Shown here in pieces: positions 2,571-19,600 of a DNA stretch of 64,000 bases (positions within the stretch are counted from its first letter, which is position 1; each line of letters opens with the position of its first letter). A program made the position numbers and the translations under genes. Under the pieces are notes generated by a model that was not told the origin of the DNA, ran no database searches, and worked only from the letters and a program-made list of their open reading frames with translations. Source of the DNA: Candidatus Pacearchaeota archaeon (lineage in GTDB: Archaea > Nanobdellota > Nanobdellia > Pacearchaeales > GW2011-AR1); NCBI GenBank assembly GCA_016186365.1, contig JACPLT010000001.1, forward strand, positions 13,231 to 77,230. The letters run 5' to 3'.

Positions 2571-2590
2571 CTAAGACTAATGATATGGTT

Positions 2591-2644
2591 ATTTTAAACA
2601 AGAGAGATAGATATATAATTTATTATCTATCTCTTTGTTTTAAA
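2591..2644 (-). terminator. long hairpin (about 20-bp arms) downstream of the hemerythrin-KaiC gene; second 11-bp-stem hairpin at 2655..2700
   Basis: attttaaacaagagagatagata / tatctatctctttgttttaaa inverted repeat with a 10-nt loop, then atttgtctcaa...ttgagacaaat. Placed between two minus-strand genes. Confidence 0.4.
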
Positions 2645-2800
2645 CCTACTTTATTTGTCTCAATTCTATAATTACTAGGGTATTAAGTTTTTGAGACAAA
2701 TAAAAATATAATTAATTAGATTAAGAATATAAGTAATTTTATTAATTATTTTAGGGCTGTTAGTAAATTTATCGTCTAATAATAACCACTAACTCAATGC

Positions 2801-4261
2801 TTATATTTCACTAAAAACTTCCTGTTCAGGATAGACAGTTATCCCATTATCAGAAATAGTAACAGCCACAATTTTCTTTTGATGATTCTCTCCCCTCATT
2901 TTCAAAACTTCTATTCCTTTTTCTCTTACATCTCCTCTCTTGAAATTATAAAATACAATTACTCCATCTGCCAAGAATTCTTCAACTCCTGTCTGTGAGA
3001 ATATTTTAGGAATTTGTTCAGTCTCTGTAATAAGTAAATTAGTTGAGCCAAGCTTTTCAAAAAATCTAAACAACTGCTCAATATAAATTCTATAGCTATC
3101 TTCTTTTCCAGTAAAAGCCGATGCAATAGCAGTAAGTGAATCAATAGCAACAAAATCAGGTTTAAAATCAGTAGGCATTATTACAGGATCAATATCAATT
3201 AATAGTTCCCCTTTTTGCTTAGCAAGAAGAGCATCAACATTTCTTGTAATATCAAAGGGATTCATTCTCTGAAGTTTTAACTTTCCTTTTTTTATTAATT
3301 CTTTTGGATTCCAACCAAATTCTTCCATATGCTCAATTAATCTGTCCTCACTTTCCTCAAAGCTCATATAATAGCATTTCTTGCCTTCATTTGCCTTATT
3401 AATAAGTGTTTGAAGGCAAAATATTGTTTTTCCACTTCCAGCACCACCTGCAACAAGCACACTACATCCCTTAGGAATTCCAAGACTAAATAAATCATCA
3501 AATCCAGGAACACCTGTTTTTACTCTTTCCTTTACAAACCTTGTATCTTTTTCATTCATATTCTGAATAACATGTAAAGCAGGAGCTCTTTGCTCTTTTA
3601 TCTCAGCTTCGTGAGGTTCAATCTTCCCACCCTTTAATTCAGCCTCAATTTCAGATTTTATAGAAGCCATGTCGAATTTAGTATTTTTTGCTTTACCTTT
3701 ATTTTCTTTTTTTTGCTTAGAAGCAGCAAACTCTGCGTACCTATGGTCCTCGATTCCAATATGATTTACAAGCCACTCTCCAAGAAATTTTCTTGCCTTA
3801 TCAACTAATTCTTTTATTTTTCCAGAAACAGGAGCTTTAGAAGAAAAAGCTAATTTTAATTCTTTTTCATAATTAATATAAAATTTAACAAAACTTCTAT
3901 GCATTTCCTTGTGCTCTTCAAGTCCAGGAAAATTAATTTTCTTCATATAGTTTTCTTCATAAGAAAAATTTTCTTTGACATAACTCTCAAAAAAACCCAT
4001 TATCTCTCTAACCAAAGCCAAACTAGCAAAAGATTCCTCTGCTTTAATTAATTTATTAATATATTCAAAAAGTCTTTTATGTTGATTATCAATTTTTTCC
4101 TCATGAACCGAAAGTTTAGAAGTCCAAACAAATTCTTTCCCGGGATTAATACTTATGTTTTTTTTAATATCTTGCTTTTTTAATTTAATAGAAATCTTAT
4201 CCTTTTCTTCCTTTTTTTTAGATTTCACCTCTGTCTTTTTCTTCACCATCTTTTTTACCAT
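2801..4261 (-). CDS. hemerythrin-domain / KaiC(RecA)-like ATPase fusion protein
   Basis: N-terminal Lys-rich tail, then a bacteriohemerythrin-like signature (WTSKLSVHEEKIDNQHKRLFEYIN; ENFSYEENYM...HKEMHRSF; EWLVNHIGIEDHRY). C-terminal RecA/KaiC core with Walker A VAGGAGSGKT and Walker B FVAIDSLT. Confidence 0.65.
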   Translation of the reverse strand: MVKKMVKKKTEVKSKKKEEKDKISIKLKKQDIKKNISINPGKEFVWTSKLSVHEEKIDNQHKRLFEYINKLIKAEESFASLALVREIMGFFESYVKENFSYEENYMKKINFPGLEEHKEMHRSFVKFYINYEKELKLAFSSKAPVSGKIKELVDKARKFLGEWLVNHIGIEDHRYAEFAASKQKKENKGKAKNTKFDMASIKSEIEAELKGGKIEPHEAEIKEQRAPALHVIQNMNEKDTRFVKERVKTGVPGFDDLFSLGIPKGCSVLVAGGAGSGKTIFCLQTLINKANEGKKCYYMSFEESEDRLIEHMEEFGWNPKELIKKGKLKLQRMNPFDITRNVDALLAKQKGELLIDIDPVIMPTDFKPDFVAIDSLTAIASAFTGKEDSYRIYIEQLFRFFEKLGSTNLLITETEQIPKIFSQTGVEEFLADGVIVFYNFKRGDVREKGIEVLKMRGENHQKKIVAVTISDNGITVYPEQEVFSEI

Positions 4262-4300
4262 CTTAATTAATCAAAGAAAACCTTATATTTAAACCTTATT

Positions 4301-4843
4301 TTACTTTTCTTCAATCACCCTATCACAAAACTGAGAAAGCCTGGAAATCATTTCATCATCAGTTTCTTTTTCTAAAGAAATTATTGTTCCCGAGCAATTC
4401 CATTCTTTCATCTTATTTATAAGAAAATGAGAAAACTTTGTTACACTTCCAGTATTATTATAAAAAATTAAAGTTGAGATAGAATCTAAGAATAATAGTC
4501 TATTGTCAGCAGGCAAGCTATTTACTGCACTTGTAGCTGCTATTGAAATATCTGTTAATCCTCGAGGACTTCCTATAAAAATCGCATTTTCCGCTTTTTG
4601 TGTTTTAAAAGACGCAGGGGTTATAGCGTCTATAAAAAAAACATTTTTTGTGTTTATCCTTTCTTGCTGTAAAAGTTTCATCAAAGCCGCATAAGGTTTA
4701 TTTACACTAATATAAACACAATTGTATTTTTTATTATTAATATAATATTTCAGAATTGCGAGATTTGTAATGACATACTTCTTAGCAGAAGTAATAACCA
4801 AAGAAATTTCCCCCTCTTTTAATTCAGAAAATTTTATTACCAT
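4301..4843 (-). CDS. KaiC-like (RecA-fold) protein with degenerate P-loop
   Basis: Paralogous to 12254..12781 and 13222..13749. Retains hhhhDS (LLFLDSIST) but has no GxxxxGK[ST]. Its start ATG overlaps the upstream stop (TAATG at 4841-4845). Confidence 0.55.
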   Translation of the reverse strand: MVIKFSELKEGEISLVITSAKKYVITNLAILKYYINNKKYNCVYISVNKPYAALMKLLQQERINTKNVFFIDAITPASFKTQKAENAIFIGSPRGLTDISIAATSAVNSLPADNRLLFLDSISTLIFYNNTGSVTKFSHFLINKMKEWNCSGTIISLEKETDDEMISRLSQFCDRVIEEK

Positions 4844-5664
4844 TAATACTTACCAACTTTTCTGTTATTTTTAAACTTTGATTCCACTAAAGAGCTTAAT
4901 GATGCATGCGAACTTTGAAGAAGAATATTAAATGCATTTGCCAACTCCCCGATCTCATCTTTTGATTTTTTTAATTTGGTAGGAATCTTTACATCAATAT
5001 TTCCAGAGCCGATATCTTCTGCTATTTCTGTAAGTTTATTGATTGGATTTATCACTCTTAAAAAGAGAATAGAAAGAGCGATTATAACAATCAATAGTTC
5101 CAGCCCAATCACCAAAAATGTAGTGTTTGAGACAGAGCTCAAAATCGCATTGTCCTCTTCTTTTAATATTTCCGAATGCTTGCTGTCAAGGTTCAAAGAA
5201 ATAGTTGAGCTTTCAAAAACATCATCAAAAAGACTATCTGTAGGTATACCTGATTTTCCAGAAAAGTAATCACCCAAAGCGACTGATAAACTTTGAGCAT
5301 CTGATAAAGTTTTCTTGTGTGCACTAAGTTCTTCTGAAATCTCAGTTTGTGTTCTTTTTGACTCTCCATTCTCTATCTCAGAAACAATTTCGCCAAACCT
5401 CAGCACATTATCATTATAGAAAGTATAAAGCTCTTGGTTATGAATAAGGGGGGTATTATTCTCATTTAAATCTGCCTGGAGATGCGCAGAAAGTCCTCTG
5501 ATATTTGCTTCTATCAACACGGCATCGATATTACTTCTTAGAGCAATGTTAATATTCTTCATTGAAGAATTATTCTTCAAAACAAACACAGTTTGAACTG
5601 AAAAAAACACAATAAAAACAATTGATATAACAATAAAGATATTTCTCAATTTCATCTCAAGCAA
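4843..5664 (-). CDS. membrane sensor: 2 TM + periplasmic domain + HAMP, no kinase domain
   Basis: N-terminal TM, about 170-aa extracytoplasmic segment, second TM followed by a HAMP-like amphipathic region (INPINKLTEIAEDIGSGNIDVKIP...DEIGELANAFN). Confidence 0.55.
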   Translation of the reverse strand: MLEMKLRNIFIVISIVFIVFFSVQTVFVLKNNSSMKNINIALRSNIDAVLIEANIRGLSAHLQADLNENNTPLIHNQELYTFYNDNVLRFGEIVSEIENGESKRTQTEISEELSAHKKTLSDAQSLSVALGDYFSGKSGIPTDSLFDDVFESSTISLNLDSKHSEILKEEDNAILSSVSNTTFLVIGLELLIVIIALSILFLRVINPINKLTEIAEDIGSGNIDVKIPTKLKKSKDEIGELANAFNILLQSSHASLSSLVESKFKNNRKVGKY

Positions 5665-5826
5665 TTCCCCCTATTTTTTTCACTTTCTTTTTCATGTTTA
5701 ATATAATAAATCTACTTATTTAAATGCATCTAATCTTTGAGCTGTAAAGTTAAAGGGAGCTAAAAGTCGGTTTGTAGGATTAAGCCATTTAGAAAAATTT
5801 ATAATTAAAGTTCGATTTACTTTAAT

Positions 5827-6195
5827 ATGAAAAAGGGAACATTTCACAATAAATGGTATTTTCGATTGCTTCAAGTAATATTTTTGGGATTTTTCATATT
5901 CTTTATAATTGTAGGTATTCGGGGTATTTTTTACAGAGAGGGTGAGCCATTTGTTGGATTCATCTTCGCAGGCATTTTAGCTATCGTGTACTGGCTAATC
6001 ATGAGAAATAAAGGCTCAATGGGTGGTTTTGTTTTTGGTGTGATGGTGGGTCTTCTTTTATTATTTATAATATCTAAACTTAATCCGGGGGACGAAATAG
6101 CTGGAATAGTGATATTTACCTTATTATTGAGTGGATTATTTTTTGCATTTATAGGTTACTTGATTCAAAATAATTCTTGGAAGAAAAACAAGTAG
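5827..6195 (+). CDS. small membrane protein (4 TM, 122 aa)
   Basis: Hydrophobic helices; no motif. Confidence 0.4.
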   Translation: MKKGTFHNKWYFRLLQVIFLGFFIFFIIVGIRGIFYREGEPFVGFIFAGILAIVYWLIMRNKGSMGGFVFGVMVGLLLLFIISKLNPGDEIAGIVIFTLLLSGLFFAFIGYLIQNNSWKKNK

Positions 6196-6292
6196 CTCGT
6201 TAGAAAAGGTTACCTTTTTGGCCTATTTATTTATACCAAACACCCGCTTACTTTACAGCTCACTAATCTTGATTCAAAACATCATCTCAATA

Positions 6293-7858
6293 TTATTTAT
6301 TTTTTTTCTTTGTTCCCTTAACAAGTTTATCAACAACATCTTTAGCTTCATAGTTCTTAGAAATTGAAGTTAGATTTTCCTTAGATATCTCTCGTATGAA
6401 AGCAAAACCCCCGATTATATTTCCTTTTATATCTTTAATAGGAGACGCTCTGATAACTACTTTTATTTCTTTTCCATTTTTTTTAATAATTGTTATTTCA
6501 AACTCTGATGCCTTACCAGATAGGGAAGTTCTAATACCTGTTTCTGCAAGTTTCAAATCTTTTTTAGCAGTAATATCTGCAGGACTTTTCTTCATTAATT
6601 CTTCTTTATTGCTATATCCAAGAATTTTTACCATAGCTTGATTCACATCTTTTGTATTTCCATTTAAGTCTATTACCCATAATCCCTCGCCCATAGAAGC
6701 AAGAATCTCTTTATTAAATTGTTCAGTTTCCTCTTTCGCTTTTATTATTTCTCCTAATCCAATATCCTCTTTAGAAATTCCTGTCCTTAAAATAGCAAGT
6801 TTCATTGAAGCTAGAATTCTATTAAATGAATCTATCAATAATTGAACTTCATCTATTGTGCTTTTTCCAAGCTGAACATCTAAATTTCCTTTTGTTATTG
6901 AAACAACGTCTGCTGATAGCTTTTCAATCGAATTTGTAATTCCTTTTGAGAAAACCAATATTAAACCAACCATAATTAAAATGCTTATTATTATAGAATA
7001 CACCATAACCATTAAAATATTACGCTGAATCTTAAACACTTTATTTGATGGTTCAAGATAAACAATCACACCATAATCCAACTTCTTAAAACTCACAACA
7101 TCACTTTCAAATATAAATGTTTCAGATAGTATATTATTTTTAATTTTATTATTTATTAACTCAATAAGTTTATCATGTTTTTCAGCAGGATTAGATTTGT
7201 CTAAATTATTTCTCGTATCTATAGTGAGATTTCCTTCTCTGTCTAGAAAGAGAGTATGACTTTCTTTATCTGAATCAATAAGTCCATTAAAGAGGGAATT
7301 GAGCGAGATAGAAGATAGAACAAACCCCTCCATTCTGTTTTGAGAGAAGATTGGCACATTAACTGTTATAGCAGGTTTATTATCCACTAAGCTTATGAAA
7401 GAAGCAGAGACATATGGCTTTTGAGTTTTTAAAATTCCCTTGCAATAATCCCTATAAGTAAAATTAAGGTTTTTTAAATTAGGTATTGAATTAGTAACTC
7501 TTTTGTCAGCAACAATTACCTTGCAATTCTCATCCATTATAGACATAGTTTGGAATAAATTACTTGATCCGACTATTACATCAAACTCCTGACTTATATC
7601 ATTCAAAGTTTCATTATCCGGATTAATCGTGACTTTGATGTATTTTTCATCGTTTGCAAGATTTTGAAGCCTGCCCATAACTGTATCAAGATACACTTCA
7701 ACTATTTTAGATTTAGTTTCTATAATCTTTTGAGCTACAACATTTTGACTTTCTACAACAATCTTCTTTGTTATAATCCCCACAGATATAACCAGAAACA
7801 GTGAAACTAAGAGGAGTGAAAGTATGATTATTATCATCAATTTTATCCTTAATTTCAT
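6293..7858 (-). CDS. membrane sensor protein: Cache-like extracellular domain + HAMP + C-terminal PAS, no kinase output
   Basis: N-terminal TM, about 250-aa extracellular region, second TM (MVMVYSIIISILIMVGLILVF), HAMP-like linker, PAS-like C-terminus (GEGLWVIDLNGNTKDVNQAMVKILGY...). No H-box or HATPase motifs. Confidence 0.55.
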   Translation of the reverse strand: MKLRIKLMIIIILSLLLVSLFLVISVGIITKKIVVESQNVVAQKIIETKSKIVEVYLDTVMGRLQNLANDEKYIKVTINPDNETLNDISQEFDVIVGSSNLFQTMSIMDENCKVIVADKRVTNSIPNLKNLNFTYRDYCKGILKTQKPYVSASFISLVDNKPAITVNVPIFSQNRMEGFVLSSISLNSLFNGLIDSDKESHTLFLDREGNLTIDTRNNLDKSNPAEKHDKLIELINNKIKNNILSETFIFESDVVSFKKLDYGVIVYLEPSNKVFKIQRNILMVMVYSIIISILIMVGLILVFSKGITNSIEKLSADVVSITKGNLDVQLGKSTIDEVQLLIDSFNRILASMKLAILRTGISKEDIGLGEIIKAKEETEQFNKEILASMGEGLWVIDLNGNTKDVNQAMVKILGYSNKEELMKKSPADITAKKDLKLAETGIRTSLSGKASEFEITIIKKNGKEIKVVIRASPIKDIKGNIIGGFAFIREISKENLTSISKNYEAKDVVDKLVKGTKKKNK

Positions 7859-8502
7859 ACTTCATCTCCTCCAATAATATAAAGGGCAATTCCTACTAAA
7901 ACAAAAAGAATAGAAGCATTTAATGCTAGAGCCTTACTAAAACCTTCAAAAGAATAATAAAGAAAGGGCTGACTGATAGCATATCCAATAAGAGCAATCG
8001 CGGAGATTACTACAACAATTACTCCCAACATTCTAATCGCTTTAGATTTTAAAGGGAAAAACCATAGAAAACCCGCAATTCCTATTAAAATAAAGTTAAT
8101 AATCGCTCCAATTGAAGGCATTCCTGGAGAGACAGTTTTTACCGCTCCAGATGCCTCATTTATAAAAGTATTTTCAATTCCAAGACTAATTCCTAAAAAA
8201 GAAGATATAAGCAAAAGCCCCATGATTAAAATTATCAACGTTAAACCAATCAGAACAATAACATTATTCAAATCCATATTCCCAGAAATCTTTAACATAA
8301 ACAAAAGCATTATCCCGGAAAATAAGAAAGAAACTGCTGCCAAAAACCTCATCTCAACCATTCCAGGAAAAAAGCTTTTTAAGATTGGAATGTTAAAAAT
8401 CCATCCAAAAATAACAACTACAGCACTTATTATAACAATTCCTGCAATTATTCTTACAGCAAGCTGTTTATTGTTTGATTGTTTATTTATTTTTTCACCC
8501 AT
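7855..8502 (-). CDS. multi-pass membrane protein (215 aa)
   Basis: 6-7 hydrophobic helices. 4-nt overlap with the downstream sensor gene. Confidence 0.5.
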   Translation of the reverse strand: MGEKINKQSNNKQLAVRIIAGIVIISAVVVIFGWIFNIPILKSFFPGMVEMRFLAAVSFLFSGIMLLFMLKISGNMDLNNVIVLIGLTLIILIMGLLLISSFLGISLGIENTFINEASGAVKTVSPGMPSIGAIINFILIGIAGFLWFFPLKSKAIRMLGVIVVVISAIALIGYAISQPFLYYSFEGFSKALALNASILFVLVGIALYIIGGDEV

Positions 8503-8517
8503 TTTTCACCTGTTTTA

Positions 8518-8937
8518 TCATTTTCTTTCTCCCAAAACTCTTTTTATTTCATCGGTAAATTTTTTGTAATCTAAGGGCTTCTGTATAAATCCATCCACTA
8601 AAAATAATTTTTCAATTTCATTTTTAGGAACAATTGTGCAAAAAAGCATTTTAGGGCTTCCCTTTGCATCTTTTTTCATTAATTCTGCAGTCTCTTCACC
8701 ATTTAAGCCAGGCATCATGATATCTAAAATAACCAAATCATAATTTATAGTCTTTGCAAGAATAACTGCCTTTCTTGAATCTTGTTCTGCTGTTGCTTCA
8801 TAACCCTCTCTCTCAACTATATTTTTCATTGTAGTTAAAACATCTGCTTCATCATCAACAATAAGAATCTTTATTTTTGACTTTCTTTCTCCCATTTTCA
8901 TTTCTTTTACTGATAAACCTCTTTTTTTCTTCATCAT
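8518..8937 (-). CDS. stand-alone CheY-like response-regulator receiver
   Basis: KILIVDDE...DLVILDIMMPGLNG...GFIQKPLD. True start probably an internal Met (MKMGERKSKIKILIV). Confidence 0.8.
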   Translation of the reverse strand: MMKKKRGLSVKEMKMGERKSKIKILIVDDEADVLTTMKNIVEREGYEATAEQDSRKAVILAKTINYDLVILDIMMPGLNGEETAELMKKDAKGSPKMLFCTIVPKNEIEKLFLVDGFIQKPLDYKKFTDEIKRVLGERK

Positions 8938-8967
8938 TTTATTTTATTAACCCTCTTTCTTTTAAAT

Positions 8968-11037
8968 CTACTTCACTAAGAGATAAGACCTTGTTTTTTT
9001 CCCTGCTTTTGCTTGCCTGCCCTCTTTTTTCTCTCCCTCAAATATAAGCTTAATTCTCTTTTTAAACTCTTCGAAGCGTTCAGTTACTATTCTATCTTTT
9101 TTCAATGATTCAAGGTATTTAATTACTCTCTCTTCGGTTATTCCTTGTTTCTGCAGATTATAAAACTCACTGATTCCAAGAGGCCCAAGAATATCAATTA
9201 AAAGTTCCTTAACTTCTTTTTCTATATCTGCTCTTCCTGAAAACAAGATTTTTATTGGTCTCATTTCTCTCACAGGCTCAAGAGGAACAGCAAAGTGGAA
9301 CACCGTGCCAACTCCTTTTTTGCTTTCAAACCATATTTTTCCATTCTGGCTTTCTACAATCCCCTTGCATATTGCTAATCCAAGTCCTGTTCCTCCAAAT
9401 TTTCTTGCATACATCCCTCCTGCTTGGAAAAATGGCTCAAAAATTCTTCCCTGCTCTTCATCAGCAATTCCATCTCCATAATCTTTGACAGTAAAATAAA
9501 TAAAATCTTTCTCTTTTTTAGCATAAACCTCAATTTTGCCATTATCTTTTGAAAATTTAATTGCATTGTTCAATAAATTTCTCAAAACCTGCATAACTCT
9601 GTCAGAATCAACTTCAATAACAGGCAAGCTATCAATATAAGGTTCTATTTTAATCTTCTTTTCAGGCATAAATCCCTTCATTTCCTCAATTGTTCTTTTT
9701 ATTGGTTCATTTAAGCTAGTTTTGACAAACTCAAACTTTAATCTTGCTGCTTCAATTCTTGAAATTTCTAAAAAGTCTTGAATAATCTTGTCTAATCTTT
9801 CTGTATTATTAAGGACAATTTGCAGTGATTCTCTTTGCTCCTTAGTTAGCTTACCAAAATAGTCTCCCAATACCATCTGCAATTGAGCTTTCATAGGAGT
9901 CATAGGACTTCTTAATTCATGTGAAGTTATAGAAAGGAACTCTGTTTTTGCCTTGTCCACCTGTTTTCTCTGCTCATCTGTTTTTTCCATTTGTTCAATT
10001 GTATTATTAAATACATTTCCCAATTCCTCAAACTCATCACCTGTTTTGATATTTGTCCTCGCCTTGAGATTTCCTCTCTCAATCTCTTTTGTTACAATAT
10101 AGAGCTGGTTCAAGGGTCTTAACATGCTCCTTGATAAATAAAAAATAGCAATAGAAAAAACAATAAATACAGATACTAAAACACTAATAAGGGCATATAA
10201 CAGTTTACTAGCAAGAGCAAAGGCTTCTTTTGTAGGAATAGCATATGTTACTATCCAATTATTTCCTTCAAAGTCAAGATATCCTGGCTCTTTTGCAAAA
10301 GCAACAATACTCTCTGTCCCTTCAATAAATTCAACATAGCTCCCAATTTCTTTGCCTTTAGATTTTTCATTTAATTGATTCCACATATGAGAAGTTTCCA
10401 TAAATAAGTCTCCGGAACCATGAGAAGAATATAAAGTGGCCCCTTCTTTATTGAGTAAATCTACATCATTATCTAATACCCCTTTAAGTAAAACATTATT
10501 TATTTTTGTAATAGGAACTCTTGCAACAATAACTCTGAATACATTTCCGTCTTTATCCTTAACAGGTGCTGCAAAATAAATTATAGGAGCTTTTAATTCC
10601 TCTGCGACCCTTATATCTGAGCCAGAGACTATTTTTCCATCTAAAACACCCCTCCAATAACCAATTAACTCATGCTGTTCTCCTATCATCAAGCCAGAAG
10701 TATCAGCTATTCTTGTTCTATTTATATCAAAAAGAGAGATAGAGGCATAACTTTTGTAAAAGTTCCTATATTCAATAAGCCTTTTTGTTATATCTTCAGG
10801 ATTAGAATCATGGTTGGTTATTAAGGAACCAGTAGCCATTACTTGGATATCAGAATACTTTTCATGCATTAATATATCAATTCTAAGCATGATCTCTTGC
10901 GTTTCCATTTCTAATCTATTGGTTATCTCTCTTTCAAGAGAAGCTTTGCTGACTGTATAAATATAAAAAGAAAGAATAACACCAATAAATAAGACGAATA
11001 TTCCAAATAACAGCAATAACTTATGTGAAAATTTCAT
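8968..11037 (-). CDS. sensor histidine kinase (2 TM, extracellular sensor domain, HAMP, HisKA, HATPase_c, C-terminal extension)
   Basis: H-box ITSHELRSPMTPM, N-box LRNLLNNAIKFS, G-boxes DYGDGI and GGTGLGLAICKGIV. Two TM segments flank a roughly 270-aa sensor domain. Confidence 0.85.
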   Translation of the reverse strand: MKFSHKLLLLFGIFVLFIGVILSFYIYTVSKASLEREITNRLEMETQEIMLRIDILMHEKYSDIQVMATGSLITNHDSNPEDITKRLIEYRNFYKSYASISLFDINRTRIADTSGLMIGEQHELIGYWRGVLDGKIVSGSDIRVAEELKAPIIYFAAPVKDKDGNVFRVIVARVPITKINNVLLKGVLDNDVDLLNKEGATLYSSHGSGDLFMETSHMWNQLNEKSKGKEIGSYVEFIEGTESIVAFAKEPGYLDFEGNNWIVTYAIPTKEAFALASKLLYALISVLVSVFIVFSIAIFYLSRSMLRPLNQLYIVTKEIERGNLKARTNIKTGDEFEELGNVFNNTIEQMEKTDEQRKQVDKAKTEFLSITSHELRSPMTPMKAQLQMVLGDYFGKLTKEQRESLQIVLNNTERLDKIIQDFLEISRIEAARLKFEFVKTSLNEPIKRTIEEMKGFMPEKKIKIEPYIDSLPVIEVDSDRVMQVLRNLLNNAIKFSKDNGKIEVYAKKEKDFIYFTVKDYGDGIADEEQGRIFEPFFQAGGMYARKFGGTGLGLAICKGIVESQNGKIWFESKKGVGTVFHFAVPLEPVREMRPIKILFSGRADIEKEVKELLIDILGPLGISEFYNLQKQGITEERVIKYLESLKKDRIVTERFEEFKKRIKLIFEGEKKEGRQAKAGKKTRSYLLVK

Positions 11038-11168
11038 CTATTCTTCCTCGGTTTATCTTTCATCTTCCCTCTTTTATATTTATAAACTAAATCCCTTTAA
11101 ATAGCTTCACTTTGAGTGATGGTCCATCAGCAATTTAAATGTAGCTTGCTTTTGCGGATATCTTCTTA

Positions 11169-12194
11169 TTACTTTGTAATAGAGGTTATAAATTGAGAAT
11201 CAATTATATCATCCAAATTTGTTAGTTTGTTTATCTGCCCCCTATTAAAATAAAATTCTGATATAAACTTTCCACTAGAATACAACTCTCCTTCTGGCGA
11301 TTTGGACATTGCCCTTATATTTTCTGCCAAACTGGGCTGATAAATTCCACTTAATCCTGAAGCTAATTCTTCATTTGTGAAGTTCTCAGCTTTTGCCATT
11401 ATATTTAGTGCCTCTTCCCTATTTGTTTTTTGGAATTCTTTTGCTTCAACCAGCGATTTTACAATTGCTTTTACTTTTTCAGGATTTTCTTCAACAAACA
11501 TAGAATTAAAGAAAAGCCCATCCACGATAATTCCTGGAATGTCTCCTGCTTTTCCTAATTGCTTATATCCCTTTGCCAAAGCAGCTGATTTAGTAGGCTC
11601 CCATGTGTGCCCTGCATCTATCTTCCCGTTTTCTAAAGCACTTAAAACATCATCTGCAGAAACATCTACAAATCGAACATCGGTTTCCTTTAACCCTACC
11701 TTTTCTAAAGAAGCAAGCACAAATATATTGGAAAAGCTATTTATTCCATCAATCCCAACTTTTTTCCCCTTCAAGTCAGAGAGAGAATTAAACTCCTTTC
11801 TTCCTATTATAATATCTCCAGATTCTGAATAATCCGTAATATATACAAATTTAGTCTTTATGCCTTCTGAATAATCTTTAATTGCATCAGAATAAACCTC
11901 AAAAATCCCATCTAACCTTTCATCTTTAAATCTTTCCCTAGACACAAAATAATCTTGATCATATATAAGCTCAACTTTAACTCCATTTTTCTCAAAAAAT
12001 CCTTTCTCCTGTGCAACAAATGCAAAAGCATAACCTGGCCATTGACCAATTGATATTTTTACAGGAGTTTCATCAAGATTTATCTTTGTGCTAGAACTAT
12101 AGTAATAAATCCCCCCCGCTATTGCCAGAACTAAAATTACCCCAATAACTATCCAAATTGCTTTATTCATTTTTCCTCTTTTATAATTAAGCAT
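11169..12194 (-). CDS. periplasmic substrate-binding protein (NMT1/SsuA-like ABC-type SBP)
   Basis: N-terminal signal anchor, then ISIGQWPGYAFAFVAQEKGFFEKNGVKVELI, typical of NMT1/THI5/SsuA-type binding proteins. Heads the SBP-HK-RR operon. Confidence 0.6.
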   Translation of the reverse strand: MLNYKRGKMNKAIWIVIGVILVLAIAGGIYYYSSSTKINLDETPVKISIGQWPGYAFAFVAQEKGFFEKNGVKVELIYDQDYFVSRERFKDERLDGIFEVYSDAIKDYSEGIKTKFVYITDYSESGDIIIGRKEFNSLSDLKGKKVGIDGINSFSNIFVLASLEKVGLKETDVRFVDVSADDVLSALENGKIDAGHTWEPTKSAALAKGYKQLGKAGDIPGIIVDGLFFNSMFVEENPEKVKAIVKSLVEAKEFQKTNREEALNIMAKAENFTNEELASGLSGIYQPSLAENIRAMSKSPEGELYSSGKFISEFYFNRGQINKLTNLDDIIDSQFITSITK

Positions 12195-12253
12195 AGAAAA
12201 TAAACTTTATAAATCCTCTTGTGCAAAACGTGAACCAAACTAATTAAAAAAGA

Positions 12254-12781
12254 TTAATTATTAGATTTCTGCGCGGTATCAATAACTTTATCGGCATAAG
12301 TTTGCGCTTTCTTTATAATTTGCTGCTGGTCTTCAACATCCAAGACTAAGAAAATTGACCGAAGATTTTCTACAGATTTCATATCATTAATAAGACTTGA
12401 AAAAAACCTTTCAACGATAATATTAGAGTTATATGTTGAAAGATTAGTTATAGAATCAAAAACAATAAAATCAAACTCCTGATTTAATATCTTTTTTATT
12501 GCTAAACTCAGTTCAGTTAAAGAAGAAGGAGACGAAAGAAAATAACATCTATCAGAAGAATTAACTTTTTTCATAGAACCAGAAATAGCATCAAGATAAA
12601 AAAAGTTTTTTTCACTTATTTTTCTATTTTTAAAAAGCTCTTCTATTGCGGGCCAGGTTTTATTATAGCTTATATATAAAACTCTCTTTCCACTTAGGCT
12701 TTTTCCAATATCTGTAGTTACTTTTCCGTAATCTAATGAATGTATTAATACAAGATTTGTTTTGTCAAATTTAAATCCCAT
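12254..12781 (-). CDS. KaiC-like (RecA-fold) protein with degenerate P-loop
   Basis: Walker A position reads HSLDYGKVTT (no Ser/Thr after the Lys). Walker B-like FIVFDSITNL retained. Abuts the upstream receiver gene (stop/start adjacent at 12781/12782). Confidence 0.55.
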   Translation of the reverse strand: MGFKFDKTNLVLIHSLDYGKVTTDIGKSLSGKRVLYISYNKTWPAIEELFKNRKISEKNFFYLDAISGSMKKVNSSDRCYFLSSPSSLTELSLAIKKILNQEFDFIVFDSITNLSTYNSNIIVERFFSSLINDMKSVENLRSIFLVLDVEDQQQIIKKAQTYADKVIDTAQKSNN

Positions 12782-13150
12782 TTATTTTTTCTCCAAAATC
12801 TTATTAACTCTTTTTAATAAATCCGAATTATCAAAGGGCTTTTGAATATAATCAACTATATTTTTGCTAATTTTCAACCCTTCCTTCTCAGCATCACTCA
12901 TTCTCACAACACTTAAAAAAGAAATCTTGACATCTTTAGAAATTTTAGATATCATCTCCCTTACTGGAGTTCCAGGCATCATGATATCCAATAGAATCAA
13001 ATCCGGCTTTTCTTTCTTTAATTTCTTTAAAGCATCATCAGCATCAACACAAAGAATTACCTTATATTTATTTTTCTCAAGAAGAAGTTTCATAGTTCTC
13101 CTTATATCCTCTTCATCATCTACAACCATCACTATTTTTTGTTCCGACAT
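12782..13150 (-). CDS. stand-alone CheY-like receiver
   Basis: IVMVVDDEED...DLILLDIMMPGTP...DYIQKPFD. Confidence 0.85.
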   Translation of the reverse strand: MSEQKIVMVVDDEEDIRRTMKLLLEKNKYKVILCVDADDALKKLKKEKPDLILLDIMMPGTPVREMISKISKDVKISFLSVVRMSDAEKEGLKISKNIVDYIQKPFDNSDLLKRVNKILEKK

Positions 13151-13221
13151 ATTAACTTCCTTTTATTGTTTAACCAACTAATAATCGAGAGTTTATAACC
13201 TCTGAGTATTATCAGATTAGA

Positions 13222-13749
13222 TTATTCTCCCAAATCAATAACCTTATCCACAAACATTCCGCTTTCTTTTATCAAAGCTTCCTGTTCTTTTACTGAAAGA
13301 GCATAAAAAATTGCTTTGGTTTTGCTTTCTTTAATCTTATTAACAAGACTTGCCACAAATTTTGAAACAGGCGCCTTGCTCTGATAAACAAGCAAATTAG
13401 TCAAAGAATCAAATATAATATAATCAAAATTATGCCTGACAAACTTTGAAATAACCAAGGAAATTTCAGTTAATGCTCCGGGAGAAGAGCAATAATAAAC
13501 CCCTTCTGATTGGTCTGGAACATTCTTAATTGTCTTTGAAATAGCATCAACAAAAACAATGCTCTCTGTTTTAATCTTATTTTTCTTAAAAAGTTCAACT
13601 AAAGAATCCTTTGTTTTATTCAAAGTTACATAAGCTATATTACTTTTAGACAATTCTTTGACTATGTCTACTATTTCTTTATTATAGTCTGCACTAGACA
13701 TAATTAAAAGTATTGTCTGGTTATTAGAAAGCTCTTTTTTTATGTTCAT
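13222..13749 (-). CDS. KaiC-like (RecA-fold) protein with degenerate P-loop
   Basis: Paralog of 12254..12781. SSADYNKEIV replaces the P-loop; YIIFDSLTNL retained. Confidence 0.55.
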   Translation of the reverse strand: MNIKKELSNNQTILLIMSSADYNKEIVDIVKELSKSNIAYVTLNKTKDSLVELFKKNKIKTESIVFVDAISKTIKNVPDQSEGVYYCSSPGALTEISLVISKFVRHNFDYIIFDSLTNLLVYQSKAPVSKFVASLVNKIKESKTKAIFYALSVKEQEALIKESGMFVDKVIDLGE

Positions 13750-13751
13750 TT

Positions 13752-14105
13752 CTATGCTCCAACAAATTTTTTTACTTGTTTAACCAAATCATCTATATCA
13801 AATGGCTTTTGTATAAACCCGACAATATTCTTGCTCTTCATCAAGTCGCCTCTTTCAGCTTCCGAAGTTCTTACAACGGAAAGATAAGCTATCTTTGTTC
13901 CTATCATTTTTGGAATTATTTCTCTTACAGGAGTTCCAGGCATCATTATGTCCATTAAAACCAAATCAGGTTTTTGCTTTTGCCATTTTTTTAAAGCGTC
14001 ATCGGCGCTTACTGCTGTAATGACATTATACCCATTTCTTTCCAAAATTGCTTTAACAGTAGTTACATTGTCAGGCTCATCATCCACAATCATTATTGTT
14101 TTCAT
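13752..14105 (-). CDS. stand-alone CheY-like receiver
   Basis: IMIVDDEPD...DLVLMDIMMPGTP...GFIQKPFD. Confidence 0.85.
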   Translation of the reverse strand: MKTIMIVDDEPDNVTTVKAILERNGYNVITAVSADDALKKWQKQKPDLVLMDIMMPGTPVREIIPKMIGTKIAYLSVVRTSEAERGDLMKSKNIVGFIQKPFDIDDLVKQVKKFVGA

Positions 14106-14178
14106 TTTATTCTTCCTAAGCTTTTAAAATGAAAAGCCTGAAAATCTTCAATTTTCTTGATTTTTGCCATATTGATCT

Positions 14179-14526
14179 TTATTTTAAAACCTCCTTGATT
14201 TTTTTCACAAATTCTTTTGGTGAAAATGGCTTTTGTATAAATCCGTCTATATCAGCCATATCAACCTCCGATTTTGGAACAACAGTAACATAAACCATTT
14301 TAACTTTGTGATTCAATTTTTCTCTTAATAATCTCAATAAATCATATCCAGACAAAGTGGGCATCATAATATCAAGTAGAATTAAATCAGGTTTAACTGT
14401 TTTAAGCAAATCAATGGCATATGCCCCATTTTTTGCTGTTGTAACTCCATATTCCTCTTTTTCAAGAATCGTCCTCATAGTTTCCAAAACATCCGCTTCA
14501 TCATCCACAATTAGTATCTTTTTCAT
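14179..14526 (-). CDS. stand-alone CheY-like receiver
   Basis: ILIVDDEAD...DLILLDIMMPTLSG...GFIQKPFS. Confidence 0.85.
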   Translation of the reverse strand: MKKILIVDDEADVLETMRTILEKEEYGVTTAKNGAYAIDLLKTVKPDLILLDIMMPTLSGYDLLRLLREKLNHKVKMVYVTVVPKSEVDMADIDGFIQKPFSPKEFVKKIKEVLK

Positions 14527-14662
14527 TTTATCCTCTTTTTAACTAATTGGAGAGGCAGAATTGCTAGGGTCATTTCTTCATCCACAATAAATATCTTTTT
14601 TGCATTTTTATTTTTCTCTTTTTCCTTATCTAACCAGGTTTTGCTTACTTTTAAACCTTTTC

Positions 14663-15683
14663 AGCCTTTGATACTGTCAACTTAAAGGGATAAATATATA
14701 AATCCATGAAATTTTACCTTTGTGAAAGGAGGTAAAATATTATGAAATGTCCTTATTGTAAATCTGAAAATATTTCTAAAAGAGGTAAAAGATTTAATAA
14801 ATCGGAAACAAAACAACTTTATCTTTGTAATAAATGTAAAAGAAAATTTGTTGAACAAAATGGATTTGAAAGAATGAGGTATAATAAAAAACATATTGTT
14901 CGAGCAATTCATCTTCATAATGAAGGGCTTTCACTTTTTCAAGTGAAAGACCATTTATGGCAACATGATGGAATAAAAGTAAGTAGAGAAGCAGTAAGAG
15001 AATGGTGCAATAAGTATAGTATTTTTTTAAAATAGAATAAATGATAATGTTTCTCCAATAATTAAAGGAAATATTCATTATGATGAGAAATATGTTAAAG
15101 TTAATGGTGATGATGCATTTGATTTGAATGCAATAGATAGCAAATCTAAATTTATTCTTGCTCATTTGTTCGTCGAGAAACGAACAAAAAAGAAATGTAT
15201 AGAATTTTTGAAACAAATTAAAGATACATGCTATAATCAAATTCTGACAAAATATTATATTGCAAAATACAATGAGACAAAAAGTAAAAATAAAGTAAAA
15301 TTTGTCTGCGACAAATTTGCAAATTATAAATCCGCATTCAACAAATTGTTTTATAGAATTGCTGAATTGGAATTCGGAGTTCCAATTGCATGTAAAAAAT
15401 ATAATTTTGAGCATAACAATAATCCAATTGAAAGATATAATGGAAAAACAAAAGACAGGATAAAATCAATAAGAAGTGGATTCAAAAATTTTGAAGATGC
15501 AAAATGTTTTATAGATTTAAGAAGAATAATTTACAACTATGTAAATCCTCATCAAGAATTGAAGGGAAAAACTCCTGCTGAAAATGCAGGCATTAATTTG
15601 AAGTTAGAGAGAAATAAGTTGTTGAACCTGATTAAATATGTCAAAGATAACTATGCACCGTTATCTTGACAGTATCTCAGCCT
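14663..15683 (+). mobile_element. IS6-family-like insertion sequence (about 1.0 kb) with 18-bp imperfect terminal inverted repeats
   Basis: agcctttgatactgtcaa at 14663-14680 against the reverse complement of ttgacagtatctcagcct at 15666-15683 (15/18 match, with an 11-bp perfect core GATACTGTCAA). These flank a zinc-finger/HTH ORF plus a DDE ORF. Confidence 0.6.
14742..15669 (+). pseudogene. IS6-type DDE transposase split into two ORFs (14742..15035 and 15124..15669) by a +1 frame break at an A4 run
   Basis: N-terminal part has an MKCPYCKSE...CNKCKRKF zinc ribbon plus HTH. Second frame opens at 15031 with HYDEKYVKVNG...AIDSKSKFILAH...NNPIERYNGKTKDRIKSIRSGFKNFEDAKCFIDLRRIIYNYVNPH (IS6/IS26-like DDE core). 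Removing one A from AAAA at 15029-15032 would fuse the frames. Confidence 0.55.
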
Positions 15684-16661
15684 TTCTTCCAGCACAGGCA
15701 ATTCCTCCTTTATCTCCTGCAACCTTTCTTCATACTTCTTCATTCTTATGTTATAAACTAAACCTGAAATTTTATTTTCTTTAAATCTTTCTGTTTGTGT
15801 TTTCTTCATTAAATCATTCAAAACCCGCTCTTCTGTTTTCATTTTTCTTATCTTGTTTATTAATAATTTTTTCTCATATCTTTTATAGGTGAAATAACCC
15901 ACAATTCCCAAGATAATCAATAAGAGTATTATGTGAATCCAGTATCTTTGGAAAAAGTTCATTGCTCCTTTTTTAATTCCAGATAAAGTTGATAACTGTG
16001 CTTTTTCTTTTTCTAATGCAAGATTAAACTCAGTCAATAAATTTTCACTATCATTGTATCTTTCTTCTGAAAAAGCCAGTTTAGCTTGGATTAAGATATT
16101 GAGAGTTTCATTGGAGATACCTGCAGAGGAAGAGGAAAATAATCCAACACTTTTAAGTTCAGCATTATTATTAAGATTATTATCTTCAACACTTATTTTA
16201 TCTAAAAGCAGATATGCAATCTCTTTCCTGCTCTGAATATCATTAGTATATACTAAAACATCTGCATAATCTATATCTTGCCACTTAACTAATCTTAATG
16301 CGTTCCTTGCATCTGTCTTTTCTTTATCTGTTGAATTATTATCTCGCAATATTTCCGCATATCTTGCCTGTTCAAATACTAGTTTTGCTTCAATTAAACT
16401 ATCATTCATATAAACAACAGAAAAGTTTTTTTCTTGCATTTCTTTAATTATCTGCTCAGAGTCATTTATTGCTTGCAATGCATCTTGTTTTGTGATAATC
16501 TTCTCATTTACAATTTGATTGCTATTACTTTTGAGATCACTATTAGAATCATTATAAACAGCAAATCCAGTAAAATTTGAATTCTGAATATTAAAAATAA
16601 AGAAGGATATTCCTAAGACTAAGAAAATGCTTACAATCATAATAAATATTTGTTGTTTCAT
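15651..16661 (-). CDS. type-I membrane/surface protein (signal peptide, about 200-aa ectodomain, TM, coiled-coil tail); last 10 codons lie inside the IS inverted repeat
   Basis: Ectodomain resembles an internal segment of the adjacent giant protein. C-terminal RLRYCQDNGA* is encoded by the IS right inverted repeat (aggctgagatactgtcaa). Confidence 0.55.
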   Translation of the reverse strand: MKQQIFIMIVSIFLVLGISFFIFNIQNSNFTGFAVYNDSNSDLKSNSNQIVNEKIITKQDALQAINDSEQIIKEMQEKNFSVVYMNDSLIEAKLVFEQARYAEILRDNNSTDKEKTDARNALRLVKWQDIDYADVLVYTNDIQSRKEIAYLLLDKISVEDNNLNNNAELKSVGLFSSSSAGISNETLNILIQAKLAFSEERYNDSENLLTEFNLALEKEKAQLSTLSGIKKGAMNFFQRYWIHIILLLIILGIVGYFTYKRYEKKLLINKIRKMKTEERVLNDLMKKTQTERFKENKISGLVYNIRMKKYEERLQEIKEELPVLEERLRYCQDNGA

Positions 16662-16662
16662 G

Positions 16663-19600
16663 TTATAGTATGTTCATTCTTTTTATTTTTTCTCTTATTT
16701 TAGCTTCCTCTCTTGCTCTTTTATTCTCTCTCATTTTACTAAAATTGTAGAATGGGTATTTTATAAATCCTATAATTTTAAGGAAAAATATTCTAACTCT
16801 TCCTTGTTTTTTAAATTCTTTTTCGGATTTGATAACTGCTCTTTCCAATTCTTTGTTAGTATTTTCAAATTGAATTTTGCCTGATTCATTTTTCTTTAGC
16901 ATCTCAAAAGTTATTCTCTCCCCTTCTATCTCTGCTAATCTCTCGTTCAAAATTTTAAATTCTGTGTTATATTCACTTTCAGATATTTTTCTATCTCTAT
17001 AGAACTGCTCCTGCACCTTTTTAATTTCATTCTCAACCTGAATTCTTTCTATTACTAAATCCTGCAAAATTTGCTGAGGTTTAAGCATTTTTATTCTTTT
17101 ATTTCTTAAGTTTAATCTCTCTTGTTTTATTTTCGCTAATTTGTTTTGATGCTGGCTCATTACTCTATGATACTCTCCAACAGAAATCTTTCCAGAAAAA
17201 TAATTTCTTTGAGCAGACAAGATAAGCCCCCTTATGTTGTCCTCTTCTTTATCAATGTCTTGTATCTTTCCAGTTATTGCAGATTTTTGATAGGTTTTAT
17301 AAGAAAAAATTCCAAACATTGTTAAAAGTACAAATCCTATTAAAACAAAATGCCAGTATAAATACAAGAATAAACCAAAATTGCCTTTTCTTTCAAGCAG
17401 AAGCAAAACCTGTGATGATTTAGCTCTTTCTTCTGCAGTTGCATAATCTCCTCTTTTAAATGCAGCTATTGCCATGTTTAAAACACTTTCAGCAGAATCC
17501 CCACTAAAAATAACTTTTCCAGTTAACATTGAATTAATAGAAACATTATCCCCATTTTCATCAACAATATCCTTTGCTACATTTCCTGTTAATAAATTAG
17601 TTTTTCTTGGATCTTTTAATGCTTCTAAAATTTTATTTATTAACTTATCAACCCCAACCGCTTTGTCTTTTATACTAATAATCTTTTCAGATAAAACCTG
17701 TGCTTCTTTATTTCTGTTTTCAGAAAGTTTATTTTTAGCTTGTTCAAGTAATTTATTAACCTCGTCTGTATTAAATCCAGAATTCGTCATTTCTAAAATC
17801 GCTTTTTCAGCTTCTGCTAAACTTAAATTGCTTTTTTCTTTGCTAACCTCTTGAATAATCAGTTTTATATTCTGGGTTTCTGTATAACTTATTTTTCCAG
17901 TTCCATCTACTTTATACCCCGATATAACTGCTTTCAGTGTATGTTCTTCATAACCTTCTTTGTAAGAAGGAATTTTTAATTTTACTGTGAATTTTTTAGT
18001 TTCTTTTGAATTAATTCTGTCTATTTTACTTGGAGATATGTCAACATACTGTGATGGAAATCCATCTAAAGTCATTGTTAAATCTTCCAAACTTGAATTA
18101 AAATATTTGTTATTTATTTCTATTTCAAAACTGTCCTGCTCTCCTCTTACGATTTCAATTGTTTTTGAATAAACAATTGATTCTCCACCTGCACCTGCCG
18201 TTCCACCACCACCTCCGCCACCACCAGTTCCAGGAGTTGTAATTGTTACTATTAAAGGATCTAAAATATTAATTTGCTTTGTTGCATTGCTAGTTGAATT
18301 CTCATTTGAATTAGACATTGCAGTTATATTGACAGTATTTGACGAAACAGAGCTTAAAACACCAATAACCAAGCTATTTGTAGAAGAAACTCCAATAGGA
18401 AGATTGCCAATATTTCTTGTATAATTTCCATTACTTAGAGAAAATTCAGAAGGCAAACTCCAATTAAGAACAACACCTGTTGCATCACTTGTTCCAAGAT
18501 TCTTTACACTTGCAACTAATTCAACTCCAGATTGTCCTCTTGTTACAGAACTAGAATAAGTATCAATGCTTGCAACAAGATAAGGTCCTGCTGCTGTTTG
18601 AATATAGACTTGCTTTGAATAAGCTTGTGTACCTGCATTAGAATTTATTGTAATACTATAATCATACAAACCTGTAGGAAGACTAACAGAATTAACTTCA
18701 ACAGAAATATTAATTGCATTTCCACTTGAAACACTGTAATTCATAGAAGAATTGCCAGTATAATTAATACTTAATTTTCCATTCAAACTTGTTGATGATA
18801 AAACTATACTAAAATTCAAAGGAGTATCACCAGTATTATTCAAATACAGCAAGCCAAGAGGATTATTATTGGTTTCTTGAGCAAGAGTATATGACTTAAT
18901 ATCAGGAATTGTTGTTGAATTATAAAATCTTGTATCATTCTCAACAACTAAAGTGTAATTTGAAGAAATATTTGAATTTCCAGCAGAATCAGTTGCATTG
19001 ATCTTAAAGTACCATGTTTCATTTCCCAAAGTAATAGAAGCATTATAATTTGTTAATGTTGTATTTGACATTGACAAAGAAGTCCATGAAATTGCAGAAG
19101 AATTTTTATACATCAACTTAACATTTGATATCTGATAATCCTCAACAATATCTGCACTAATATTTACTGTTACTCCAGGATCAAGCTCTGCAGTTGTATT
19201 AGGAGTATAACTTATATTATAAATTTGAGGAAAACTATCATCTGTAATATTTATATTATAACTAGTTGTTAAATTTCCTCTTCCTGATGAATCATATAAA
19301 TAAATCTGGCTATTAAATCCCGGCATGGTTGTGTTTCCTGCTGCAATTATATAACTTAAACTAGAGGAAGTTCCTGATAAGGAAATTTGTGAGGAGTTCT
19401 GCCAAGTTCCTGTTGCATTATAACCAATTATTGCATAACTCAAGCCAACTGCATCAGAAACAGATGCTGAGCAGTTAACATCTTGCGAATTATTAACAGG
19501 ATTTGTGCATGTAAATGAATTCACAGAAGGATTATTCAAATCAACATAAATTATCGTTGATTTGTTTGCTTGATTTTTATTAGTTGAAGAATCATTTGCA

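Follow-up and report, generated by a model that had tools for sequence, protein, structure and literature searches.

In a 64,000-nucleotide stretch of DNA from a Candidatus Pacearchaeota archaeon (positions 13,231 to 77,230 of contig JACPLT010000001.1, assembly GCA_016186365.1; hereafter the window, numbered from its first letter), stand-alone receivers (REC) are encoded in tandem with KaiC-family proteins that have lost their ATPase motifs (inactivated KaiC, iKaiC). The locus is probably the front end of a DPANN two-component signaling operon with iKaiC as the output partner, a receiver and an iKaiC encoded by adjacent genes working as a split REC-iKaiC response regulator. The original prediction, made from sequence alone, had described two receiver-KaiC pairs and a third receiver, and all five open reading frames (ORFs) lie exactly where it placed them, on the minus strand (Table 1; NCBI locus tags here include HYW76_00185 and HYW76_00175). 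The pairs do form a tandem array, with a period of 964-967 bp, but the recent duplication and decay to which it had been attributed did not hold up.

Receivers and their inactivated KaiC partners

The three ORFs predicted to be receivers belong to Response_reg (PF00072), scoring 86.6 (REC3), 69.8 (REC2) and 74.0 bits (REC1) against a cutoff of 30.2, and their catalytic residues are intact. In all four receivers of the window, the fourth being encoded after the kinase, D8, D9, D52 and K99 are invariant together with a Thr or Ser before VV, and the aromatic switch residue (Phe or Tyr) sits three residues before the Lys.

Sequences and best-hit lists separate three receiver types. The alpha type, with the signature MPTLSGYDLLRLLRE, comprises REC3 and its orthologues, which are 59-68% identical and hold the same position in contigs L007, L010, L011, L018, L019 and L020. 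REC2, REC1 and their orthologues make up the beta type, in which MPGTPVREIIPK is followed further on by SVVRTSEAE; REC2 orthologues are 71-76% identical and lie directly upstream of iKaiC, and REC1 shares 60% identity with REC2 and 61-70% with the beta receivers of other genomes. The gamma type is a degenerate receiver (IGxxDD, DIRLG and RKPVD motifs; L003 8828-9214, L010 4835-5227, L011 9601-9999, L016 and L017) that in relatives lies between the beta receiver and iKaiC or ahead of the alpha receiver, and it is absent from the window; at the gamma position the L009 call has only 74 residues versus 130 in L010. Of 73 receivers adjoining iKaiC (position -1), at least 52 are of the beta type, and several more that were called "other" are beta variants; position -2 is usually taken by an alpha receiver. 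Therefore REC3, the third receiver of the original prediction, is the conserved first gene of an alpha-REC/beta-REC/iKaiC trio and no leftover; many genomes have an alpha receiver ahead of the beta-REC-iKaiC pair.

At the Walker A position the two 175-residue KaiC-like proteins read IMSSADYNKEIV and LIHSLDYGKVTT, and their Walker B segments read DYIIFDS and DFIVFDS; the strings SSADYNKEIV and HSLDYGKVTT and the hhhhDS motif, all quoted in the original prediction, are present. Scores against the relevant families fall below threshold. For KaiC (PF06745) they are 16.1 (iKaiC-A) and 15.7 bits (iKaiC-B) against a cutoff of 26.6. Against DUF7504 (PF24336) and DUF7090 (PF23365), both with a cutoff of 27, iKaiC-A reaches 21.9 and 23.6 bits, and iKaiC-B has 12.2 bits for the former and no match to the latter; iKaiC-A scores 18.1 bits for DUF835 (PF05763; cutoff 33.1). 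Among 75 family members, 69 and 71 match DUF7504 and DUF7090, respectively, with E < 0.01, and 30 match DUF835 weakly. DUF7504 and DUF7090 are the nearest Pfam families, with neither iKaiC-A nor iKaiC-B a formal member. Weak matches to the Elongator subunit Iki1/Elp5 (Elong_Iki1), itself a RecA-fold pseudo-ATPase, occur in 28 of the 75.

As a search of the PDB sequences with iKaiC-A gave nothing significant (best E 1.4), the fold was established through AlphaFold2 and Foldseek. The AlphaFold2 model of iKaiC-A, built with 75 homologues, has a predicted local distance difference test score (pLDDT) of 94.4 and a predicted TM-score (pTM) of 0.90, and it retrieves FlaH (4yds), PH0284 (2dr3, TMq 0.74), KaiC and RecA with E values of 2.5e-7 to 1e-5 and TMq up to 0.75, a RecA-type fold in which the Walker B hhhhD is kept and FDS is invariant. 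Profile-profile comparison with 17 genuine KaiCs of the same loci (hhalign; 80% probability, E 1.4e-5, 162 columns) places the KaiC P-loop GGAGSGKT against SSADYN and a six-residue gap, so that GKT falls opposite the gap; the catalytic YMSFEES, with its Glu pair after strand 2, faces an invariant YVTLNKT lacking that pair, and Walker B is retained (KaiC VAIDSLT, iKaiC IIFDSLT). The alignment ends about 60 residues before the KaiC C-terminus, the segment with the conserved Lys and Arg. Over all fetched loci, GxxxxGK[ST] is found in 0 of 121 iKaiC ORFs and in 27 of 27 true KaiC ORFs that cover the P-loop region. Since AlphaFold2, Foldseek and the profile comparison agree, the relationship to KaiC is real despite the sub-threshold sequence scores. 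By alignment and predicted structure, then, iKaiC is a RecA/KaiC-fold protein without the P-loop, the catalytic Glu pair and the C-terminal Lys/Arg segment, much as the original prediction had it; neither an intact Walker A nor a fold other than that of RecA came to light. Homology to KaiC, disrupted ATPase motifs and association with signaling domains, the features that go with the term iKaiC as Galperin (2018, PMC5847659) uses it after Makarova 2017, are all found.

Conservation of the REC-iKaiC pair in archaea

Relatives of iKaiC-A in the database number 391 (E <= 0.001, word-indexed search); the 120 best are 62-100% identical to it, and orthologues at 60-88% identity run into the hundreds. 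A profile search of 1.84 billion cluster representatives returned 2691 at E <= 1e-3 and 1743 at E <= 1e-10. Y22, T42, L43, N44, T46, D68, P90, T94, F113, D114, S115, Y122 and D168 are invariant in orthologues, N23 and K45 are conserved at 98-99%, and Lys24, at the position of the Walker A lysine, is kept in only 33%. Compared with four orthologues, iKaiC-A shows a ratio of nonsynonymous to synonymous substitution rates (dN/dS) of 0.05-0.10, at dS >= 1. Identity to orthologues is 84-87% for iKaiC-A, 71-73% for REC2 and 64-66% for REC3. Given the low dN/dS and the higher conservation of iKaiC-A than of its receivers, the picture is the opposite of decay.

The order REC-REC(-REC)-iKaiC-histidine kinase recurs in contigs L003, L005, L007, L010 and L011, and in orthologue-bearing contigs a membrane protein, a dCache protein, a hemerythrin and a true KaiC often lie downstream of the kinase. 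A scan of one genome per GTDB species, annotated with hidden Markov models (HMMs) built from the sequences of this analysis, yielded 79 loci in Woese-, Pace-, Nano-, Aenigm-, Undin-, Iain- and Micrarchaeota and in Thermoplasmatota. A receiver is directly upstream of, or fused to, iKaiC in 68 of them; a histidine kinase directly follows an iKaiC in 35, and seven have two or more REC-iKaiC units (multi-unit arrays elsewhere are in L003, L021, L022, L075 and L076). Gaps from the REC stop to the iKaiC start are mostly -8 to +3 nt; in the window, 2 nt separate the REC2 stop codon from the iKaiC-A start and the REC1 stop is immediately followed by the iKaiC-B ATG. Of the 26 loci whose 6-kb flanks are complete, 25 have a receiver, 21 a histidine kinase, 16 the dCache protein and nine a true KaiC. 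Ancestrally, alpha-REC came first, then beta-REC, iKaiC and the histidine kinase, with the membrane protein, the dCache protein, hemerythrin and the genuine KaiC ATPase beyond them. In this pairing, conserved across DPANN and Thermoplasmatota, a known type of archaeal response regulator takes a split-gene form.

Natural fusions of a beta-type REC to iKaiC also exist (P0212 and P0271-P0281, as well as L079 and L082), and the predicted structure of P0212 has a pTM of 0.80. Other architectures include CBS-CBS-iKaiC, tandem iKaiC-iKaiC and forms of about 290 residues with C-terminal transmembrane segments (P0204, P0244, P0256, P0258, P0157/P0175/P0186); in P0258 a weak CheC-like match lies N-terminal to iKaiC (E 4e-4; 20.7 bits, below the 22-bit cutoff). 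Among the fusions seen in the profile-search hits, none joins iKaiC to a kinase core (HisKA/HATPase). The module also appears, in typical DPANN alpha-REC/beta-REC/iKaiC form and at 55-67% identity, on contigs labelled as metagenome-assembled genomes of a Sulfurovum sp. (L047), a bacterium (L050), a Chloroflexota (L058) and several "Methanosarcinales"; these are probably mis-binned and not real hosts.

Fusions and gene order bear on whether iKaiC could instead act on the input side, as a MEDS-like ligand-binding modulator whose remodelled nucleotide pocket would detect a small molecule and thereby control the adjacent kinase, with the receivers downstream of it or serving as phosphate sinks. 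The kinase is close by in many loci, as counted above, the former ATP site carries a cluster of invariant polar residues, and MEDS, an iKaiC, is a sensor domain of archaeal kinases in PMC5847659. Nevertheless, in every fusion seen iKaiC stands C-terminal to a REC, to CBS-CBS or to the sub-threshold CheC-like match, or is membrane-anchored, never joined to HisKA/HATPase, and its tightest link is to the receiver, present in nearly every full-flank locus with gaps of 0-3 nt or overlaps. An input role is therefore unlikely, though it merits consideration. Because of the tight or overlapping gene coupling, the beta-REC fusions, the C-terminal placement and the lack of kinase fusions, iKaiC is proposed as the output partner of the receiver.

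A lineage-specific second unit

Could a receiver/pseudo-KaiC module nonetheless have been duplicated in tandem recently and now be in decay, with the fragment upstream of REC3 as the last trace of a further receiver or unit? The DNA repeat search found REC1 and REC2 DNA to be 77% identical over 101 nt. The two units with their regular period might suggest so, but iKaiC-A and iKaiC-B are only 41% identical, against 60% for the receivers, and synonymous sites are saturated between the units. iKaiC-B has diverged faster than its receiver, as decay would predict; its best matches elsewhere are 40-45% identical and are to A-type copies, and a search of 5.8 billion proteins for its orthologues returned its own entry only. 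On the other hand, iKaiC-B is full length and keeps the family's invariant Y, N-K-T, D, P, T, DS, Y, F and D columns, every other ORF of the array is likewise intact with its family-invariant residues, iKaiC-A is under purifying selection, and the multi-unit arrays of the five contigs named above show that the arrangement is not peculiar to the window. Given this and the origin of the upstream fragment, described below, decay can be given hardly any credence.

In the close relatives inspected (L009-L012, L016, L017), the kinase directly follows iKaiC-A. Hence REC1, iKaiC-B and the gene for a solute-binding protein that comes next form a lineage-specific block, which from its divergence is an old, fast-evolving duplicate or acquisition and no recent copy.

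A duplicated start upstream of REC3

The fragment itself, a receiver-like stretch of 36 nt at about 14605-14570, is real, as the original prediction had noted. Positions 14574-14600 match REC3 codons 2-10 at 24 of 27 nt, a score reached by none of 300 shuffles, and a gapped match of 14634-14574 to REC3 -20..+30 (score 58; 0 of 500 shuffles) spans the ribosome-binding region and the ATG, including AAAAAGAG...ATAAAATG. The DNA repeat search independently placed it, at 77-nt spacing, in repeat family D5 of three receiver starts, and it aligns with the alpha-REC starts of other genomes. The remnant ATG at 14605 opens an out-of-frame upstream ORF of 11 codons (MQKRYLLWMKK, then a stop), and the receiver-like frame reads KKIFIVDEE, since extra bases past the ATG shift the frame. 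A possible 3' extension (MTLAIL, compared with REC3 codons 17-21) is too short for significance.

On the simplest reading, the remnant is a decayed tandem duplicate, about 80 nt long, of the start of REC3 itself, comprising the ribosome-binding site, the ATG and the first 10 or so codons. It had been taken for what is left of a lost receiver or unit, but its best match is REC3's own ribosome-binding site and start 77-80 nt away; a lost gamma-type or additional receiver was rejected on the same ground.

An insertion sequence adjoins the array, which might seem to favor decay by deletion. Its inverted repeats begin GATACTGTCAA, it is present as a single copy in the window, and its transposase (Zn-ribbon plus DDE rve_3/IS240-like) is split over two frames, 14742-15035 and 15124-15669. 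The target duplication is a clean 9 bp and therefore indicates simple insertion without adjacent deletion; as the remnant also lies outside the element, deletion mediated by the insertion sequence was rejected as its origin. The element sits in the last codons of the gene at 15651-16661, where it encodes the residues YCQDNGA. Excising it restores an end that reads LEERLKRFKSKQNLVR followed by a stop, and the remnant ATG then lies 24 nt after this original stop of the upstream gene, the spacing found in L011. Because the two spacings are equal, the remnant occupies the ancestral alpha-REC start site, and REC3 begins 79-80 nt further on. The gene at 15651-16661 and the 2406-residue surface protein gene beyond it (16663-23883) are syntenic with L011 genes of 295 and 1842 residues.

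A TATA-like element, (A)AGGTTTAAAA(A/G), lies about 30-50 nt before the alpha-REC start in L003, L005, L010, L011, L018, L019 and L020, and in the window it lies at 14640-14660 (minus strand), ahead of the remnant. Transcription of the remnant within the operon leader is therefore probable; the remnant itself probably has no role in the module. In independent short-read assemblies of the same organism (L013, SRR12113431; L001/L002), contigs break 39 nt upstream of the REC3 ATG (about 14565, within the duplicated segment) and just upstream of REC2, which may reflect the 80-nt repeat or strain heterogeneity.

Other genes of the locus

Table 1. Features of the REC-iKaiC locus and its surroundings, in window coordinates.
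Feature	Position	Strand	Remarks
Hemerythrin fused to genuine KaiC-like ATPase	2801..4261	-	KaiC E 5.7e-53 (180 bits); Hemerythrin E 2e-11
iKaiC-C, third inactivated KaiC paralogue	4301..4843	-	180 aa; DUF7504 34.0 bits (cutoff 27); KaiC 24.4 bits
dCache-HAMP-PAS protein	6293-7858	-	conserved downstream cluster member; order matches L003, L005, L011, L019
Polytopic membrane protein	7855-8502	-	conserved downstream cluster member; order matches L003, L005, L011, L019
Fourth intact receiver, alpha-like paralogue, after kinase	8518..8937	-	Response_reg E 3.5e-17; 48% identical to REC3
Sensor histidine kinase, dCache-HAMP-HisKA-HATPase_c	8968..11037	-	Pfam matches
NMT1/SsuA-type solute-binding protein, membrane-anchored (N-terminal)	11169..12194	-	NMT1 E 7e-20; SsuA_fam E 3e-39
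iKaiC-B, lineage-specific fast-diverged iKaiC-A paralogue, intact ORF	12254..12781	-	175 aa
REC1, beta-type receiver paralogue	12782..13150	-	122 aa; Response_reg E 1.3e-20
iKaiC-A, inactivated KaiC/RecA-fold protein, widely conserved copy	13222..13749	-	175 aa
REC2, beta-type stand-alone receiver	13752..14105	-	117 aa; Response_reg E 2.7e-19; motifs MPGTPVREIIPK, SVVRTSEAE
REC3, alpha-type stand-alone receiver, CheY-like	14179..14526	-	115 aa; Response_reg E 1.7e-24; motif MPTLSGYDLLRLLRE
Alpha-REC start duplicate (remnant)	14570..14636	-	decayed upstream copy of ~80-nt tandem duplication
Insertion sequence target duplications	14661-14669 and 15677-15685		9 bp, TCAGCCTTT
Insertion sequence, Zn-ribbon + DDE transposase	14670..15676	+	1007 bp; 9-bp target duplication
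Membrane/coiled-coil protein	15651-16661	-	336 aa; orthologue of L011 295-aa gene preceding alpha-REC

The hemerythrin-KaiC fusion downstream retains Walker A (GGAGSGKT), the catalytic SFEES and the Walker B AIDS, and next to it is iKaiC-C, which is 29% identical to iKaiC-A. In relatives L003, L011 and L019, hemerythrin and KaiC are encoded by separate adjacent genes. The fusion in the window hints, in the manner of a Rosetta stone, at O2, iron or redox sensing as an input to KaiC. The solute-binding protein, encoded just upstream of the dCache kinase, may be a ligand-delivery partner for it; the annotation of the related contigs inspected shows no gene of this kind in the interval from iKaiC to the kinase, the HMM set used for L015-L093 containing no model for it. 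A PADLOC scan for anti-phage defence gave nothing significant (only noise with E > 0.004), an Rfam scan of 2000-17000 gave no matches, and Tandem Repeats Finder reported three short low-score repeats, with no array at the period of the unit or of the remnant. Defence, Rfam or DNA tandem-repeat signals do not confound the interpretation of the locus.

A proposed signaling mechanism

Under the split-regulator scenario, the kinase at 8968-11037, the presumed phosphodonor, would phosphorylate the stand-alone receivers of the alpha and beta types. The phosphorylation state of the beta receiver, which is translationally coupled to iKaiC and in some Thermoplasmatota forms one protein with it, would decide whether this receiver binds or releases iKaiC, and iKaiC would pass the signal on by protein-protein contact, either to KaiC-fold partners such as the hemerythrin-KaiC fusion and the other iKaiC copies or to the kinase itself. 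The alpha receiver may be a second acceptor that branches or drains phosphoryl flow. A phospho-dependent adaptor, the function originally suggested for the module, thus stays the most likely one, with the natural beta-REC-iKaiC fusions in its favor and phospho-dependent binding itself a presumption.

Several observations weigh against this scenario. In some genomes (L010, L011) it is a gamma-type receiver and not a beta-type one that adjoins iKaiC. With no orthologue found in the protein search, a function for iKaiC-B is unsupported by conservation. The weakest step is the downstream target, for which support is weak because a true KaiC lies within 6 kb in only nine of the 26 full-flank loci. 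Finally, the most conserved residues of iKaiC (Y22-N23, N44-K45-T46, D68, S71-K72-T73 and D114-S115) are at the former nucleotide site, which could mean ligand binding or chemistry and not pure scaffolding.

It is the strict conservation of these polar residues that keeps ligand-based and chemical explanations in consideration. One of them is that iKaiC retains chemistry at a remodelled site, taking or removing the phosphoryl group of phosphorylated REC in a CheZ/CheC-like or phosphorelay manner, or binding a nucleotide non-canonically. The invariant N44-K45-T46, S71-K72-T73 and D114-S115 are rich in Lys, Ser, Thr and Asp, like phosphate-binding sites, P0258 carries its weak CheC-like match, and iKaiC-A is more constrained than its receivers. 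However, the P-loop, the catalytic Glu and the Arg/Lys finger segment are all missing, conservation of the old active site is also expected if that surface is a docking site, and we know of no precedent for phosphoryl chemistry at a remodelled KaiC site; such an activity is thus quite improbable. In a broader form, the former ATP site would have been rebuilt as a conserved polar pocket that binds a ligand or phosphoryl group, making beta-REC/iKaiC an unrecognised switch or phosphorelay step and the main two-component output across DPANN and Thermoplasmatota, possibly in control of KaiC-type ATPases. This is a long shot. The split REC-iKaiC regulator, with iKaiC as an adaptor, accordingly remains the preferred account.

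Comparison with known systems

RecA-fold proteins offer several points of comparison. Elongator Elp4/5/6 and the Rad51/RadA paralogues have lost the ATPase motifs but keep the RecA fold as a scaffold for interactions, as iKaiC probably does; the similarity is at the level of fold only, with no functional or phyletic link. FlaH is part of the archaellum motor. ArlH/FlaH (4yds), PH0284 (2dr3) and PH0186 (2zts), the best structural matches of iKaiC, are single-domain RecA/KaiC cores of similar size; the FlaH structure 4yds holds ATP and Mg, whereas iKaiC lacks the P-loop and the C-terminal segment. The cyanobacterial KaiABC clock with its SasA/CikA-RpaA two-component output also has signals passing between a KaiC-fold protein, receiver-fold domains and a histidine kinase. 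There KaiC is a double-domain active ATPase and autokinase and the receiver-like domains of KaiA and CikA are pseudo-receivers, whereas in the window it is the KaiC-fold partner of genuine receivers that is the pseudo-enzyme; neither KaiA nor KaiB was seen here. Makarova, Galperin and Koonin, in mBio in 2017, reportedly described archaeal KaiC-like ATPases as "signal transduction hubs". In keeping with such hubs, the window cluster has a genuine single-domain KaiC ATPase (fused to hemerythrin), inactivated paralogues and sensor proteins; the difference is that the present focus is on inactive paralogues wired to a classical kinase/receiver system.

The closest known relatives are the archaeal response regulators with an inactivated KaiC catalogued by Galperin (2018, PMC5847659) in a Table 2 that draws on Makarova et al. 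2017: iKaiC-REC in Methanosarcinaceae, REC-DUF835 in Methanomicrobia and Thermoplasmata, and MEDS-REC in Nitrososphaera. REC-iKaiC fusions in Euryarchaeota were likewise reported there, and the output of archaeal two-component systems was proposed to run mainly via protein-protein contacts (PMC5847659). In the same census, stand-alone receivers made up about 40% of archaeal response regulators and most lacked a conserved neighbourhood, so that their partners could not be inferred; only four DPANN genomes were included, each with one or no kinase and regulator (PMC5847659). On links between KaiC and response regulators in DPANN and on DUF835-KaiC, Galperin 2018 was the only literature found, although Makarova 2017 may mention the neighbourhood.

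The departures from the known type are a split-gene arrangement with receivers of two types, broad conservation in DPANN and, in the window, tandem duplication; no new principle is involved, as the combination of a receiver with an inactivated KaiC was already catalogued in the form of fused proteins. Beta-type stand-alone receivers gain a specific partner, a strongly conserved KaiC-family pseudo-ATPase that is sometimes fused to the receiver, and the REC-iKaiC link is extended to DPANN archaea, in which signaling is almost unstudied. One kinase, two or three receivers and a 175-residue partner provide a compact test set for a link between a classical kinase/receiver system and the proposed archaeal KaiC network. 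Like the known regulators, the window combines a bona fide receiver with an ATPase-dead KaiC domain within a two-component system. It differs from them in that iKaiC-A and iKaiC-B fall below the Pfam cutoffs of DUF835, DUF7504, DUF7090 and KaiC, and in that its parts are separate, translationally coupled genes, preceded by an alpha receiver, followed by a kinase and tandem-duplicated in a DPANN host.

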